Shown here one piece after another: positions 33,815 to 64,000 of a stretch of 64,000 nucleotides of DNA. Origin of the DNA: Escherichia coli. GTDB lineage: Bacteria > Pseudomonadota > Gammaproteobacteria > Enterobacterales > Enterobacteriaceae. The stretch lies in assembly GCF_003334255.1 (NCBI RefSeq), contig NZ_QOWU01000008.1, one strand, 5' to 3'. The first letter of the stretch is position 1. Every line of letters begins with the position of its first letter. The notes below the pieces were generated by a model that saw only the letters and a list, made by a program, of their open reading frames with translations, was not told the origin of the DNA and did no database searches. The translations under genes were made by a program, and so were the position numbers.

Positions 33815-34310
33815 TGTGAATGCCTGATGCGACGCTTGCCGCGTCTTATCAGGCCTACGCCAGACAGCGCAATAGCCTGATTTAGCGTGATTTTGTAGGT
33901 CGGATAAGGCGTTTATGCCGCATCCGACATCAACGCCTGATGCGACGCTTAACGCGTCTTATCAGGCCTACGCCAGACAGCGCAATAGCCTGATTTAGCG
34001 TGATTTTGTAGGTCGGATAAGGCGTTTACGCCGCATCCGACATCAACGCCTGCTGCGACGCTTGCCGCGTCTTATCAGGCCTACGCCAGACAGCGCAATA
34101 GCCTGATTTAGCGTGATTTTGTAGGTCGGATAAGGCGTTTATGCCGCATCCGACATCAACGCCTGATGCGACGCTTAACGCGTCTTATCAGGCCTACGCC
34201 AGACAGCGCAATAGCCTGATTTAGCGTGATTTTGTAGGTCGGATAAGGCGTTTACGCCGCATCCGACATCAATGCCTGATGCGACGCTTGCCGCGTCTTA
34301 TCAGGCCTAT
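33815..34310. repeat. REP/BIME cluster: about 4.5 tandem units of 113 bp, each holding two REP palindromes
   Basis: CGTCTTATCAGGCCTAC recurs at 33842, 33955, 34068, 34181 and 34294 (period 113 bp). Confidence 0.9.
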
Positions 34311-48856: not shown

Positions 48857-48888
48857 AAATAACCTCTCTGCACGAAATATCGTATTAT

Positions 48889-48973
48889 TGCCTGATGGCT
48901 ACATTTATCAGGTCTACGTTCAGGTTATTTTGTTGGCCGGATAAGACACTTCATTAGCATCATCATCCGGCAT
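48889..48973. repeat. degenerate REP-like palindromic element in the alsA-alsB spacer
   Basis: GCCTGATGGC...TCAGGTCTAC and GCCGGATAAGACACT...CATCCGGCATC resemble diverged REP units. Confidence 0.5.
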
Positions 48974-48982
48974 CATTCAGTT

Positions 48983-49918
48983 TTATTGAGTGACCAGGAT
49001 TGAATCGACCAGTTTAAATTCCGGTGCTTTATCCAGCGGGATAACCTTGCCGGATTTCTCAGCGTCAACCATCAGCTTCAGACCCGTTGCGCCGATATCC
49101 GCCGGGTTCTGGGCAACCGTCGCGGTCATTTGTCCGGCTTCCACCATTTTGCGGGCTTCCGGAATGCCATCTGTACCGACGACCAGCACTTTTCCCGTTT
49201 TTCCGGCGTTTGCGACTGCCTGAGCAACACCCATTGCCATCGTGTCATTCGCGCAATAGATCGCTTTAATATTCGGATTACGTTGCAACACGTTAGTGGC
49301 GACATCCAGTGCTTTAATGCGGTCCCAGTCGGCAGGCTGGCTGGCGACAAGCTTGATCTGGCTTGCTTTTTTGAAGGCTTCGGTGGCACCATTACGACGC
49401 GCTTCACCGGAGGCGTTACCGGCTTTACCCTCAATGATTGCGACTTCACCACCTTCAGCGCCCAATTTGTCAATAATGAACGACGCGCCTTTCGCCCCGA
49501 CAGCAACGTTATCGGTGGTGACAAAAGCTTCCACATTGCCGCCAGCTTTTTTCAGATTATCCATGTCGATTTTTTCATCGAGATTAACCAGATAAATGCC
49601 TTTTTTCCATGCGCGGGCGACAGGCATGACCAGATTCACTGAGGATAATGGAGCGAAGGCGATACCTTTGTAATTTTTATTACTGAGATCTTCAAATAAC
49701 TGCAATTGAGATTGAAAATCGCCTTCTGAAGGAGAGGCAAAAATATCAACGCTGACGCCCAGTGTTTTTGCTTCATCTTCAATGCCTTTTTTCATATCTA
49801 CCCAAAATGGGTTGGAGAGGGTTTTCAATACGACAGCATATTCGGCGGCAGCAAAAGCGCTGGTTGACAACATTAAGCCCACGAGTGTGCCGCTGAAATA
49901 TTTCAGATATTTATTCAT
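48983..49918 (-). CDS. alsB: periplasmic D-allose-binding protein (311 aa)
   Basis: Signal peptide and ribose-binding-protein-like fold. Confidence 0.9.
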   Translation of the reverse strand: MNKYLKYFSGTLVGLMLSTSAFAAAEYAVVLKTLSNPFWVDMKKGIEDEAKTLGVSVDIFASPSEGDFQSQLQLFEDLSNKNYKGIAFAPLSSVNLVMPVARAWKKGIYLVNLDEKIDMDNLKKAGGNVEAFVTTDNVAVGAKGASFIIDKLGAEGGEVAIIEGKAGNASGEARRNGATEAFKKASQIKLVASQPADWDRIKALDVATNVLQRNPNIKAIYCANDTMAMGVAQAVANAGKTGKVLVVGTDGIPEARKMVEAGQMTATVAQNPADIGATGLKLMVDAEKSGKVIPLDKAPEFKLVDSILVTQ

Positions 49919-49976
49919 AATAATGTTCTCACGGTAAGGGGACAGGTAACTCCGCGATGGCGGAATTACCTTTTTC

Positions 49977-50867
49977 TTATTTCAGCGCGCCTGGTGAGAA
50001 GAAATCAACAATTGCGCCGGTTTTTTGCATATTAATATTAGCTTGTTCAATGTTGAGCTGGGCGACAGAGACAAAAAAAGCGTCCAGCAAAGTTAGTTGT
50101 AATATTCTTGCCGAGGCATTACGACCTAATAACGGCGTTTCCGGGGCTGGTGAGCAAATAATATAATCGGCCAGTTTCGCTATCGGTGAATGGTAGCTAT
50201 GGGTTATACAAATAATCTTTGCCCCGTTCTTTTTTGCCAGTTCTACGGCCGCTTTTACATCACTGGTTCGCCCGGAATGGGTCACTACCAGCACAACATC
50301 TCCTTCCTGTAACAACGAAGCGGACATCATCATGATGTGAGCATCAGGATAGGCCTGACAGCGTACGCCAATGCGCAAGAACTTGTGCTGTACATCAGCA
50401 CAGATAGCATTTGATCCTCCGGCACCGTACAAATCCCGCTGTCTGGCCTGATAGAAAAAGCGGGCGGCACGGTGGATCTCATCAACGTTGACGATCGACT
50501 GACCTTCCATAATGGTGCGTAAAGTGATGTTAAATACCTTATTCACCACATCCTGCGGCGCTTCATCAAAAGCCAACTCGGAAGGCAATACCTGTTCTGA
50601 CTGAGAAAAATAATCTTCCAGCGCACTGCGTAAGTTACGAAAGCCGCTAAACCCCAGCAGCTTTGATACCTTAACTATCATCGCTTCAGATACCGCCAGA
50701 GCTTCTGCGACATCTTTAATTGCGGGTGCACAACTCAGGTTACCGGGTTTGAGTAACCACTCCACGATGCGGCTTTCATTTTCTGTCATTCCTTCCTGCT
50801 TCATTCGCAGGTAAGGCGCTAACCCTATACCGTTCGGAAGCGCTGAATCAAACTCTGACTGGCTCAT
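49977..50867 (-). CDS. rpiR: RpiR/AlsR transcriptional repressor, HTH plus SIS domain (296 aa)
   Basis: ORF 49977..50900 trimmed to MSQSEFDSALPNGIG...; RpiR-type HTH then sugar-isomerase (SIS) domain. Confidence 0.85.
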   Translation of the reverse strand: MSQSEFDSALPNGIGLAPYLRMKQEGMTENESRIVEWLLKPGNLSCAPAIKDVAEALAVSEAMIVKVSKLLGFSGFRNLRSALEDYFSQSEQVLPSELAFDEAPQDVVNKVFNITLRTIMEGQSIVNVDEIHRAARFFYQARQRDLYGAGGSNAICADVQHKFLRIGVRCQAYPDAHIMMMSASLLQEGDVVLVVTHSGRTSDVKAAVELAKKNGAKIICITHSYHSPIAKLADYIICSPAPETPLLGRNASARILQLTLLDAFFVSVAQLNIEQANINMQKTGAIVDFFSPGALK

Positions 50868-51225
50868 CACGTTCTCTTGTCCTTGAATTGAAGACGCCAC
50901 TATATCACCACAGCAAGAACAGAAAAGATGCTGGCGACTTCACAAAAAAATAAAATTTATAAAGTTTATTTTATTGTGAACAATGGCGAGTGGCTTAAAA
51001 TTTTATTTCATTTAATTAGTTTAAAAACATGATGTTATTTGTTTTTCTGGTTTTTTAGATGATAGATGTTGCTGGATGGTGAGTGTCTTTAACGCTATTG
51101 CGCTGTCAGATGTAACTCTGTAAAACAGATCAGGAAGGCGTAATTCATCGATTTTGGGTGTTTTTAATTCATTAACATCACAAATGTTTTTTGATTGTGA
51201 AGTTTTGCACGGACGGGGAAGATGA

Positions 51226-51675
51226 ATGAAAAAGATTGCATTTGGCTGTGATCATGTCGGTTTCATTTTAAAACATGAAATAGTGGCACATTTAGTTGAG
51301 CGTGGCGTTGAAGTGATTGATAAAGGAACCTGGTCGTCAGAGCGTACTGATTATCCACATTACGCCAGTCAAGTCGCACTGGCTGTTGCTGGCGGAGAGG
51401 TTGATGGCGGGATTTTGATTTGTGGTACTGGCGTCGGTATTTCGATAGCGGCGAACAAGTTTGCCGGAATTCGCGCGGTCGTCTGTAGCGAACCTTATTC
51501 CGCGCAACTTTCGCGGCAGCATAACGACACCAACGTGCTGGCTTTTGGTTCACGAGTGGTTGGCCTCGAACTGGCAAAAATGATTGTGGATGCGTGGCTG
51601 GGCGCACAGTACGAAGGCGGTCGTCATCAACAACGCGTGGAGGCGATTACGGCAATAGAGCAGCGGAGAAATTGA
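51226..51675 (+). CDS. rpiB: ribose-5-phosphate isomerase B / allose-6-phosphate isomerase (149 aa)
   Basis: RpiB/LacAB family (MKKIAFGCDHVGF..., CGTGVGISIAANK); divergent from rpiR. Confidence 0.92.
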   Translation: MKKIAFGCDHVGFILKHEIVAHLVERGVEVIDKGTWSSERTDYPHYASQVALAVAGGEVDGGILICGTGVGISIAANKFAGIRAVVCSEPYSAQLSRQHNDTNVLAFGSRVVGLELAKMIVDAWLGAQYEGGRHQQRVEAITAIEQRRN

Positions 51676-51743
51676 GATTCATCCACTACTTGCATGGATG
51701 AGTAATGATTAATGTGGATAGAGTTTCTTTTTGAGGCTGGCTA

Positions 51744-52073
51744 ATGAAACGCTTTCCGCTATTTCTTTTATTCACCCTGCTCACGCTGTCCACCGTTCCG
51801 GCCCAGGCCGATATTATCGACGACACCATTGGCAATATTCAGCAGGCGATTAATGACGCTTATAACCCTGACCGTGGGCGAGACTATGAAGATTCGCGCG
51901 ACGACGGCTGGCAGCGTGAAGTGAGCGACGATCGGCGCAGGCAATATGACGACCGCCGCCGCCAGTTTGAAGATCGCCGCAGGCAGCTGGACGATCGCCA
52001 GCGCCAGCTTGATCAGGAGCGTCGGCAACTGGAGGATGAAGAGCGGAGAATGGAAGATGAGTATGGGCGATGA
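51744..52073 (+). CDS. yjdP: small secreted protein with charged DDRRRQ-type repeats (109 aa)
   Basis: Signal peptide MKRFPLFLLFTLLTLSTVPAQA then repeats (DDRRRQYDDRRRQFEDRRRQLDDRQRQLDQERRQLEDEERR). Confidence 0.6.
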   Translation: MKRFPLFLLFTLLTLSTVPAQADIIDDTIGNIQQAINDAYNPDRGRDYEDSRDDGWQREVSDDRRRQYDDRRRQFEDRRRQLDDRQRQLDQERRQLEDEERRMEDEYGR

Positions 52074-52094
52074 GGTTGGGTATGGAGCAGGCAT

Positions 52095-52197
52095 CGCCCC
52101 TCACCCCAATGGGGAGAGGGAGAAAACGAGCGCAATATTCAATATCGAGCACAATCGGTCCCCCCGCCCCTCTGGGGAGAGGGTTAGGGTGAGGGGG
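52095..52197. repeat. GC-rich inverted-repeat intergenic element (CCCCTCACCCC / GGGGAGAGGG / GGGTGAGGGGG)
   Basis: Two copies of GGGGAGAGGG flanked by complementary CCCTCACCCC and GGGTGAGGGG arms between yjdP and phnP; resembles a box-C-type enterobacterial repeat, family not verified. Confidence 0.5.
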
Positions 52198-52219
52198 CCA
52201 GCGCGCACATTCCCTCTCA

Positions 52220-52978
52220 TCACGCCACCCCAATCTCCATCCCATCAAACCCCACCTCAAACCCTGACGGTAGTGCGTTTTCCATCAGCCACGCATCAAA
52301 CTGGTGGCTGATATGGGTCAGAATCACCCGTGGCGAGCGGATAACCTGATTCAGCGCAAGCACGGTATTTAAATCACAGTGATTACGCGGTGCATCCGCG
52401 CGCGGCGGGTGACTGCAATCCATCACCATTACCTGCGGCTGATTATTGCGTAAAAATTTCAGCGTTTTTTCCGGCAAGCCTGCGGTGTCAGACAGCCACG
52501 CCACCCGGCTGTGTGCCGTTTCCAGCAGATAACCGAAGGTCAGTTTTGAGTGGTTGAGCGGCAGGGGCGTGACCTGTAACCCCTGCAAATCAAACACCAC
52601 AAACGGTTCCACCGTGTGGCTGAAATCAAGCAGGCCCGGATGTTTAAACAGATCGTCGCAGCCCTGTTCATCCGGCGGGCCGTAAACCGGGATCGGATCG
52701 CCAACGCCCCAGCGCAGCGGAAACAGCCCCTGGACGTGATCCATATGATAATGCGTCAGCAAAAACTGCTGGAACGATCCGGGCGACCAGCGATCGGCGA
52801 GATCGTGCAGCCCGGCGTCGATCAGGGTGATTGCGTCGTTAAACTTCACTACGCCGCTGCACGGTTGGCGGCGATACTGCGGCGAGCGCCGCGCTCTGGC
52901 GCAGGCCGCACACTCGCAGCCCCATGCCGGAACGCCCTGTGCGCCGCCGGTGCCGGTGAGCGTGAGGGTCAGGCTCAT
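52220..52978 (-). CDS. phnP: phosphoribosyl 1,2-cyclic phosphate phosphodiesterase, MBL fold (252 aa)
   Basis: Metallo-beta-lactamase motif HYHMDH; last gene of the phn operon. Confidence 0.9.
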
Positions 52979-52979
52979 G

Positions 52980-53414
52980 TTACAGCGCCTTGGTGAAGCG
53001 GAAGTGGCTCTGCTCGTAGCCTTCGCGCAGATAGAAACGGTGCGCGTCGTGGCGCTTCACGTTGGTCGAAAGTTCGGTCATTTCGGCCCCGGCCTGGCGG
53101 GCTTCTTCTTCTGCCCACGCCAGTAACTTACTGCCGACGTTCAGACCGCGCGCCTGCGGCATTACCACCAACTCCTGAATTTCGCCGATCCAGTTGACAT
53201 GATGCAGATGAAACTGCAAATGCAGGCCGATCATGCCGACAACTTCGCCATCAAGCAGCGCCAGATGGTAGCGCATGTTTGGGTCGCGCAGATTGGCGTT
53301 AAAACCCACGCGAAACGCGTGGTGGTCAAACTCCGCCTGTTTTAGCTCACAAATCAGCGCGTAAACCGCGTCGGTGTCGTACTGCGTGGCCGGGCGAAGC
53401 TCACAAGCAGGCAT
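52980..53414 (-). CDS. phnO: aminoalkylphosphonate N-acetyltransferase, GNAT (144 aa)
   Basis: GNAT acetyl-CoA-binding motif region ([22 protein letters not shown]). Confidence 0.88.
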
Positions 53415-53958
53415 GGTGTTTCTCCTTCTGATGGATCAGCGTCAGCAGCGTGTCGACCGACTGGCGCAGGCTGCCGTCATTGTTGAGCGTATGGCAATCC
53501 TGTGGAGTATAGCGGGCGGCGCGCGCCAGGCGGGCGTTAATTTCACTGGCGTTTTCACGGCCACGGTTTTCCAGGCGCTGGCGGAGGATCTCCGGCGAAA
53601 CCTGTAAACAGACGGGCAGCAGCGCCGATTGATAGCGCGCCCGCGCCTGCGGCAGATGGGCGCGTGAGCCGTTGACCAGCACGTCGAATCCGGCGTGCAG
53701 CCAGAGATCAATCTCGACGCCGACGCCATAATACAGACCGTTAGCGTGCCAGCTTAAGGCCAACAGATTTTGCCCCGCGCGGGTAAAAAACTCCTGCTCG
53801 CTCAGGGCGATATGGTTTTCACTTCCGGCGCTGGCATCGCGCGTGATGTAGCGATGCGCCACCAGTAACTGAGTTTGTTCCCGCAGGCGGAGTTCCGCCA
53901 GCAGGCTGTCTTTCCCGGAGCCGGACGGCCCCATTAACCAAATCAGTTTTCCCATCAT
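53401..53958 (-). CDS. phnN: ribose 1,5-bisphosphate phosphokinase (185 aa)
   Basis: P-loop [10 protein letters not shown]; guanylate-kinase-like. Confidence 0.9.
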
Positions 53959-55094
53959 CAGAACACCCTTTTACCCTGACGCCAGACGTGGTCGATATGA
54001 ATATGATTGTCCTTGCGATGCGCCAGCACCAGGTCGGCGCGTTTGCCCTCGCCAATCACCCCGCGATCCTGGAGATTAAGCGCCTGCGCTGGATTTTTAG
54101 TCACCAGCTTCACCGCCTGCGGCAGCGTAAAGCGGTTGCTCTGGTCATCGGCGACGCGAAATGCCGCATCGAGCAGGCTGGCGGGGTAGTAGTCGGAAGA
54201 GAGGATATCCAGCAGGCCAAGCTGCGCCAGTTCACTGGCCGCCACGTTGCCGGAGTGCGAGCCGCCGCGCACAATATTCGGCGCGCCCATCAGCACGTTC
54301 ATGCCATGCTTGCGCGAGGCTTCCGCCGCTTCGAACGTGGTGGGAAATTCGGCGATCACGCTGCCAAGCTGGTGAGATTCAGCAACGTGGGCGTGGGTGG
54401 CGTCATCGTGGCTGGCAAGCGCAATTTTTCGCGCGCGGCACAGGGCGGCGATGGATTCGCGATTCGGCTGCGACCAGCGTGCGGCGAGCGCCAGTTGCTC
54501 TTCTTCGTACTGCTGCATCTGCGCATCAGTGAGGGAGTATTTGCCCTGATAATATTCGCGATACTTCTCGCGGTTGGCGAACTGGCGCTGGCCCGGCGAG
54601 TGGTCCATCAGCGACACCAGCGTCACCGGCTCGCGCTGCACCAGTTTTTCAAACAGCGGCAGCGTGGTGTGATGCGGCAGTTCGCAGCGCAGATGCAGAC
54701 GGTGCTCGGCGCGGTTGACGCCGCGTTTCTGCGTCTCTTCGATGGCGTTGATCATCTTCTCCAGATTCTCCAGCCGATCGCCGCCGTCGCGCACGTCGCC
54801 AATTGCCACGGCATCCAGTACGGTGGTGATGCCGCTCGCCACCATCAGCGCGTCGTGGCTGCTCATCGCCGAGTGGGCAGGCCAGTCAACTTTCGGGCGC
54901 GGGGTGAAGAATTTATCCAGATTATCGGTATGCAGCTCAATCAGCCCCGGCAGCAGCCAGCCGCCTTCGCCGTCCATCGCCTCCGGCAGGCGGCTCTGGC
55001 TTTCGGCAAAGGCGCGGATTTCGCCGTTCTGCACCTCCAGCGAACCGCTTACCACCTCGTTTTCCAGCACCAGCTTAACGTTATTGATAATCAT
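53958..55094 (-). CDS. phnM: amidohydrolase-family triphosphate hydrolase (378 aa)
   Basis: Amidohydrolase metal-binding HTD motif ([11 protein letters not shown]). Confidence 0.9.
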
Positions 55095-55771
55095 GAAGAG
55101 GCTCCCATTGGGTGCAGGCGGTCGGCGACGTCATTACGTACAGCTTCGTCATGGAAGATGCCTACGATGGCTGCGCCACGGGTTTTGGCTTCGCGAATCA
55201 GTCCCACCACCGCGGCGCTGTTTTTGGCGTCCAGCGAGGCGGTAGGTTCGTCAAGCAGCAGAATGGGGTAGTCGACGATAAAGCCGCGGGCGATGTTGAC
55301 GCGCTGCTGTTCGCCACCGGAAAATGTCGATGGTGCCAGGTGCCACAGGCGTTCCGGCACGTTCAGGCGGGTGAGAAGACGCGCGGCTTTAGCGGCGCAG
55401 GCTTCACGCGGAACGCCGGTATCGAGCAGCGGCTGCATCACCACTTCCAGTGCTGAGATACGCGGGATGACGCGCAGAAACTGGCTCACCCAGCCGACGG
55501 TGGTTTTGCGGATTTCCACCACTTTGCGCGCTGGCGCGGTGACCAGGTCTACCCACTCGTCACCGTGTTTGATCTGGATTTGACCTTCGTCGGGCAGATA
55601 GTTGGCGTACAGCGAGCGTAGCAGAGTTGATTTGCCGCTGCCGGAATGGCCGTGGAGCACCACGCATTCGCCCGCGTTGACGGTGAGCGAGGCGCGATTG
55701 AGGACGGGCAGGCGCACGCCGTTTTGCTGGTGCAGGATGAAGGTTTTACTGACGTTTTGTACGTTAATCAT
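55091..55771 (-). CDS. phnL: C-P lyase complex ATP-binding protein PhnL (226 aa)
   Basis: ORF 55091..55885 trimmed to [11 protein letters not shown]...; Walker [10 protein letters not shown]; the track 5' extension translates the adjacent REP. Confidence 0.9.
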
Positions 55772-55790
55772 TTTTCGCCTCGTGGTTCGG

Positions 55791-55877
<87 letters not shown>

Positions 55878-63649: not shown

Positions 63650-64000
<351 letters not shown>

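Follow-up and report, generated by a model that had tools for sequence, protein, structure and literature searches.

The inverted repeat between yjdP and phnP in the 64,000-nucleotide stretch of Escherichia coli DNA analysed here (the window) is an already catalogued member of the BoxC family, at this exact site. We consider it very probable that the locus holds a pair of BoxC units, the right one a complete type A unit and the left one a decayed type B unit, and that this pair is a passenger which was gained and has been eroding since. The right half, 52161-52196, was aligned base for base to MG1655 4,314,285-4,314,320, the sole difference being one T>C, and this interval is no. 22 (CCCTCGCCCCTCTGGGGAGAGGGTTAGGGTGAGGGG, sense strand, type A mm) of the 23 TMECO copies in MG1655 given in Table 1 of Holder et al. 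(2015, NAR, PMC4666352). The same study equates TMECO with BoxC, first described in the 1990s, and with PIT, its rediscovery by Maher's group (PMC4666352), whilst HPG1 and HPG2 (GGGAGAGGGTTAGGGTGAGGG and its CCG variant) are the BoxC 21-mers under yet another name (Kaplan et al. 2016, NAR, PMC5100583). In a unit of this family a pyrimidine block, CCCTCNCCCC, precedes two purine blocks, GGGNGAGGG, with short loops between. The name BoxC reportedly goes back to Bergler 1992 and Bachellier 1999, and that of the PIT elements to Hoyne and Maher 2000/2002. Block structure, the TTA loop of type A and the intergenic site all agree with the published family, and, as 52161-52196 is both a published copy and a multi-copy motif, the feature belongs to a known family in which it is already listed.

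The features of the locus are as follows, with positions in the window.

51744..52073, + strand: yjdP, the upstream neighbour, encoding a DDRRRQL-repeat protein and convergent with phnP.
51850..52260, - strand: antisense ORF of 136 aa (411 nt, TTG start), probably spurious.
52097..52120, - strand: type B BoxC remnant, with C-block CCCTCTCCCC, ATT loop and one G-block GGGGTGAGGGG.
52121..52127, - strand: T-rich 5' flank of type B (TTTTCT on the - strand), also present at TMECO no. 18 and in TUM2330.
52128..52140, no strand: middle of the spacer, locus-specific and relatively A+T-rich, inside a short imperfect hairpin of the - strand fold.
52141..52160, + strand: 5' flank of type A, family-conserved and terminating in a near-invariant (A)CGGTC.
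52161..52196, + strand: BoxC/TMECO type A core, from Table 1 of Holder et al. and the MG1655 alignment.
52161-52170, 52171-52173, 52174-52183, 52184-52186 and 52187-52196, + strand: C-block, TCT loop, G-block 1, TTA loop and G-block 2 of this core.
52164, + strand: C for T at position 4 of the C-block; T in MG1655 and all best matches.
52197..52208, + strand: 3' flank of type A, GGCCAGCGCGCAC, of weaker family conservation.
52220..52978, - strand: phnP, the final gene of the phn operon, convergent with yjdP.

The original prediction had described two copies of a motif within complementary arms, an AT-rich spacer, and a family other than REP for which copies should be counted genome-wide and box C compared; on all of these points it was right. 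The motif GGGGAGAGGG lies at 52111-52120 and 52174-52183 and nowhere else in the 64-kb window, against an expectation of 0.08, and none of 100 dinucleotide shuffles of the window contained it twice or more; GGGTGAGGGG lies on the + strand at 52187-52196, with its complement at 52097-52106. A repeat search returned inverted arms of 13 nt at 52097-52109 and 52184-52196 (92% complementary, 74 nt between them), together with a direct repeat of 24 nt at 52097-52120 and 52160-52183 (83% identity). Read from the sequence, the 40-nt spacer has a G+C content of ~42%, against more than 80% in the arms. A 41-nt query from the right unit found its match in 5,408 of 5,426 complete E. coli genomes, the median number of places per genome being 15 and the highest 26, and the motif is thus not unique. 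No GCCGGATGCGGCG-type REP match with up to two mismatches lies within 52074-52219, whereas 31 lie elsewhere in the window.

The last result sets BoxC apart from elements that it otherwise resembles. REP/BIME elements and REPINs are likewise short, GC-rich, structured, intergenic and multi-copy, often in inverted pairs and mostly at the 3' ends of genes, yet their sequence is unrelated and they are simple palindromes where BoxC has three blocks. In the window, dense REP-type clusters form BIME arrays at 33822-34286 and at 63701-63956 (the latter with three repeats at a period of ~100 nt), and further REP-type units at 55793-55875 stand just beyond the end of phnL (~55771), apparently within the phn operon before its next gene. 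We also rejected an identity with RU-3 (Delihas 2007), which shares a length of 103 bp and an intergenic location with the element and nothing more: as published, RU-3 is a REP/BIME doublet (tatgccggatgcggcgtaaacgcc...), and unrelated.

The surrounding DNA is K-12-like. Positions 48876-55876 of the window correspond to 4,311,000-4,318,000 of MG1655 NC_000913.3 in a gap-free alignment; across these 7 kb we observed four substitutions (51737, 51941, 52164 and 55203), every one a transition. The stop codons of the convergent genes yjdP and phnP are separated by a gap of 146 nt, and the BoxC pair lies inside it. Within yjdP itself, three tandem 21-nt repeats at 51951-52013 give rise to the DDRRRQL-type peptide repeats of its product, the size of which varies from 100 to 109 aa among E. 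coli homologues. The antisense ORF at 51850..52260 had been taken to be just the translation of the element; this does not hold, as the element takes up only about a quarter of the ORF, over half of which runs antisense to yjdP. It may be the ORF once called 'phnQ' in the earliest phn sequence, though a literature search gave no confirmation of this. The ORF is absent from the annotation of NC_000913.3 (MG1655 RefSeq) and is probably best read as spurious; nor does the RefSeq annotation of MG1655 carry a repeat feature at the yjdP-phnP gap.

How, then, do the two halves relate? The left one is a type B unit from which G-block 1 and the CCG loop have been removed by a 12-nt deletion. Strain TUM2330 carries 12 extra nucleotides at this point, and its - strand reads as a perfect type B unit, CCCTCGCCCC ATT GGGGAGAGGG CCG GGGTGAGGGG; since these 12 nt restore type B, the left half in K-12 and in the window is a type B unit minus one purine block. 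The missing block also explains why this partner, a degraded one, is not in the published TMECO list. Paired units in MG1655 always combine one type A with one type B unit (Holder et al. 2015, PMC4666352), and in TUM2330 and 151 other genomes, where type B is intact, an A unit (TTA loop) and a B unit (CCG loop) are indeed found in inverted pairing. The orientation differs from that of most published pairs: here the units stand head-to-head with a spacer of 40 nt between them, while of the five pairs listed for MG1655 four are tail-to-tail. The T-rich flank of type B was also noted for HPG2 by Kaplan et al. (2016, PMC5100583), and, as the flanks are conserved in the family, both ends of the spacer are to be counted with the units they adjoin, its middle alone being locus-specific.

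The locus is therefore an A/B pair, inverted head-to-head with a 40-nt spacer, and not one element with a long stem. The long stem originally envisaged survives in part, in that the outer arms do pair in the - strand fold, which they do because every C-block of the family complements every G-block; what it joins, however, are two units. Folding of the whole gap on both strands, also put forward as a check, was similarly divided, the + strand being unremarkable (z -1.4) and the - strand moderate (z -2.8). The defining structure of BoxC is instead that of a C-block with two G-blocks, as a hairpin or intrastrand triplex, and not a long stem; the predicted single-strand fold of the right unit is a hairpin in which the C-block is able to pair with either G-block.

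The right unit departs from its family at a single base. The published consensus is CCCTCNCCC N3-6 GGGNGAGGG N3 GGGNGAGGG (PMC4666352), to which the MG1655 allele conforms exactly, whilst the window copy is off at one specified position, 52164. Owing to this private T>C in the C-block the strict published consensus fails in the window, and the relaxed pattern alone matches, at 52161-52195. A perfect match to the 41-mer with C at 52164 is absent from all 5,426 complete E. coli genomes (the best is 40 of 41), and the substitution weakens the predicted single-strand DNA fold, from -9.2 to -7.1 kcal/mol, with z going from -2.0 to -0.06. When 11 type A copies of MG1655 were anchored on their cores, ~20 nt upstream proved to be common to them (consensus cAAAAaCG.GccCGgACGGTC), with a weaker GAAcA..ggCac downstream; conserved flank and core together explain the older, longer BoxC unit of ~56 bp. 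The downstream flank at 52197..52208 could belong either to the type A unit or to the sequence originally targeted, its comparison with the short allele described below giving an ambiguous placement.

The locus is hypervariable, as has been reported for the family. The spacer (52119-52160), a single-copy sequence with a median of 1 place per genome, was found in 3,109 of the 5,426 complete genomes, and by this measure the two-unit form is present in 57% of them. An intact type B unit occurs in 152 (2.8%), and a BoxC-less spacer of 27 nt in 1,011 (18.6%), Nissle 1917 among them; other alleles make up ~24%, and those sampled are deletion forms. Alleles were sampled evenly along the similarity ranking for a 701-nt query, which gave locus lengths of 713, 701, 650, 631, 597, 589 and 582 nt, and one of each length was aligned. 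Each shorter allele aligned derives from the full form by one deletion, as follows.

K-12 and window allele: 12-nt deletion, CCCC repeats at its ends.
cS51a allele: 63-nt deletion with no further mismatch, CCCTC repeats at its ends.
O157 allele: 82-nt deletion, 9-nt repeat TCGCCCCTC at its ends.
GDSC allele: 116-nt deletion, imperfect ~6-nt repeat at its ends.
TUM1586 allele: 124-nt deletion, CCC at its ends.

The deletions thus end in short repeats (3-9 nt) inside or next to the BoxC blocks. In cS51a the deletion leaves a perfect hairpin of 52 nt (-22 kcal/mol, z -5.1), which is the 'palindrome effect' described by Holder et al. (2015, PMC4666352) for the family. We posit that slipped-strand or microhomology deletion, acting on blocks that are nearly identical, would be wearing the pair down, and deletion from block to block could in turn underlie the local instability reported for BoxC.

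Where did the pair come from? Outgroup loci were found through homologues of YjdP. In E. albertii, of which one lineage was read in detail, the stop codon of yjdP is followed by a BoxC-less 24-nt spacer TATAGGGGGCGCGGGTATTTCTCT, homologous to the 27-nt short allele of E. coli, and then by a remnant of the phnP 3' end; the phn operon has been lost there, with ~80 nt of the 3' end of phnP kept. In E. fergusonii and Citrobacter, other genes lie downstream of yjdP, and both are uninformative on the gain of BoxC. The region downstream of yjdP appears as a variable spot, with a glyoxalase-family gene in E. fergusonii and, between yjdP and phnP in Citrobacter (C. farmeri and C. europaeus), a parE/phd or higB/HTH toxin-antitoxin pair. 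As the BoxC-less spacer is common to E. albertii, the BoxC-less state is probably ancestral, and the pair would have come in as a ~131-nt segment, into a yjdP-phnP spacer that originally measured ~25 nt. No target-site duplication is visible, and exhaustive two-breakpoint models left many solutions tied at 11-12 mismatches; with neither placeable junctions nor a visible target-site duplication, the gain is something that we infer. Alternatively, the short allele could be an old deletion spread by recombination, and not an empty site.

As for what the pair does once in place, we favour the view that it has no required function at yjdP-phnP. A search of the literature after 2015 found no demonstrated function for BoxC. 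Two considerations weigh against a neutral passenger: a statement of 'no function' is absence of evidence, and a core conserved across distant phyla is hard to square with purely neutral sequence.

An alternative, which we regard as unlikely, is that the head-to-head A/B pair is itself mobile, a composite like a REPIN or MITE whose triple-block units would serve as terminal inverted repeats on either side of the spacer, moved in trans by a putative enzyme recognising the blocks in folded form. The analogy is with REPINs and REP doublets, which are moved by RAYT transposases; to our knowledge no transposase is associated with BoxC. In species-representative genomes the BoxC consensus is found at at least 120 loci. 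Among the matches listed, it is multi-copy in Polaromonas, Pseudomonas sp. dw_612, Candidatus Contendobacter, Xanthomonas cucurbitae and Neisseria, as well as in metagenome-assembled genomes (MAGs) of Alphaproteobacteria, Hyphomicrobiales, Desulfobacterales and Verrucomicrobiales and in one unclassified MAG. Again among the matches listed, triple-block cores are kept across Enterobacteria, Pseudomonas, Polaromonas, Alphaproteobacteria, Desulfobacterales and Verrucomicrobia with differing flanks, the core sitting in each distant genome within longer, genome-specific repeats, as a composite would lead one to expect. Pseudomonas sp. dw_612, the Verrucomicrobiales MAG and the unclassified MAG GL140_5 have the triple-block core with at least 50 nt of conserved flank, and in GL140_5 a REP-like hairpin (GTGGGCTTGCCCAC or GCGGGCTCCGCCCGC) comes after the core.

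The pairing found in these genomes also speaks for such a composite. Pseudomonas sp. dw_612 has 13 head-to-head pairs, five of them at a fixed spacing of 89-90 nt, and these mostly join an A-like to a B-like unit, so that asymmetric A+B ends recur there and in E. coli; the Verrucomicrobiales MAG has four head-to-head pairs at 87-105 nt. The presence/absence polymorphism in E. coli and the BoxC-less outgroup point the same way. Against this, the single-copy spacer means that the composite as a whole is not repeated in E. coli, and in MG1655 the majority of pairs stand tail-to-tail, 16-27 nt apart. Of the hallmarks of a MITE, the locus has the inverted ends, but no target-site duplication could be resolved among the tied breakpoint models. 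Nor does a mobiliser gene accompany the motif: when 2,213 ORFs within 2.5 kb of it were clustered, none recurred among the 120 loci listed from 14 distant genomes other than members of large superfamilies (ABC transporters, histidine kinases and TonB receptors). Holder et al. likewise found no transposase or integrase remnants near it (PMC4666352). The more specific proposal that the pair at yjdP-phnP is the relic of such a composite, inserted as a ~131-nt unit into the ~25-nt spacer, with its cores as recognition structures for a putative trans-acting mobilisation, seems to us decidedly unlikely.

A role at the 3' ends of transcripts, with the hairpins acting, as REP can, to stop or stabilise the messages of the convergent genes yjdP and phnP, is in our view quite improbable, despite a suggestive position. 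The pair lies exactly between the convergent stop codons of two genes that both have no canonical intrinsic terminator, and stable local hairpins are predicted within it. Six of the 11 MG1655 type A copies examined are likewise between convergent genes (tauD/hemB, aaeR/tldD, frlR/yhfS, zntA/tusA, fimH/gntP and yjdP/phnP), with three between co-directional genes and none between divergent ones among those resolved, a placement at odds with a published remark by which upstream positions relative to ORFs are the more frequent. This bias fits either tolerated insertions at 3' ends or a role there, and to that extent it also counts against a purely neutral passenger. However, an intrinsic terminator has a GC-rich stem-loop followed by a T/U run, and the U-tract is absent from the pair; indeed, no terminator-like and no promoter-like sites were found on either strand of 51600-52600. 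For PIT elements, the summary given in PMC4666352 reports neither promoter nor terminator activity, no effect on RNA polymerase and no effect on replication in vivo. No Rfam family covers the element: at a permissive threshold, 50500-53500 gave two chance-level hits and nothing credible, one of them mir-615 (E = 6.8), whose 19.8 bits fall well short of the gathering score of 90. Moreover, a transcript role sits uneasily with an element that is missing altogether from 18.6% of genomes and is represented by other alleles in a further ~24%, the sampled non-K-12 forms being truncated.

We find it highly doubtful that the element acts as a regulatory switch between G-quadruplex, hairpin and duplex, as in the model for HPG1 (Kaplan et al. 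2016, PMC5100583). The likeness to HPG1 and HPG2 is close, with identical 21-mers, an upstream C-rich block and the T-rich flank for B/HPG2; the difference is one of interpretation, a quadruplex and not a triplex being read from one sequence, and both structures are known in vitro only. Positions 52174-52196 read GGGG AGA GGG TTA GGG TGA GGGG, that is, four G-tracts with 3-nt loops, and thus contain the canonical quadruplex motif (four runs of at least 3 G, loops of 1-7 nt). For HPG1 there is circular-dichroism support for a quadruplex, together with conservation in E. coli relatives (PMC5100583). On the other hand, oligonucleotides of the G-rich strand with the consensus sequence formed a hairpin and a purine-motif intrastrand triplex in vitro, and for the full-length oligonucleotide a quadruplex was excluded by NMR, 18 imino signals being read as a triplex (Holder et al., PMC4666352). 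Moreover, the structure was lost once the complementary strand was added, with no triplex in the duplex form, and DMS footprinting in vivo detected neither protection at the motif nor a triplex (PMC4666352). The locus is also dispensable in many strains.

That the feature is a chance GC-rich palindrome, a REP/BIME unit or coding sequence can be dismissed almost outright: REP units are abundant in the window and the 136-aa ORF does span the region, but the count of GGGGAGAGGG is far above chance with at least 15 copies per genome, the element has no REP consensus, and the ORF, which begins with TTG and is unannotated, lies on the strand opposite a real gene and is destroyed in the many deletion alleles.

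To conclude, the finding in itself matters little, as the element has been catalogued at this exact position and its family has carried four names since 1992. What we add is the decayed type B partner, the series of deletions with microhomology at their ends, and the probable empty site common to E. albertii. A single spacer thus offers a compact natural example of how BoxC behaves: besides what looks like an empty site and an A/B pair that is intact, it shows at least five deletion products. For considering how BoxC has spread and why its core is conserved, such a locus, whose probable empty site is found in an outgroup, is of some use.
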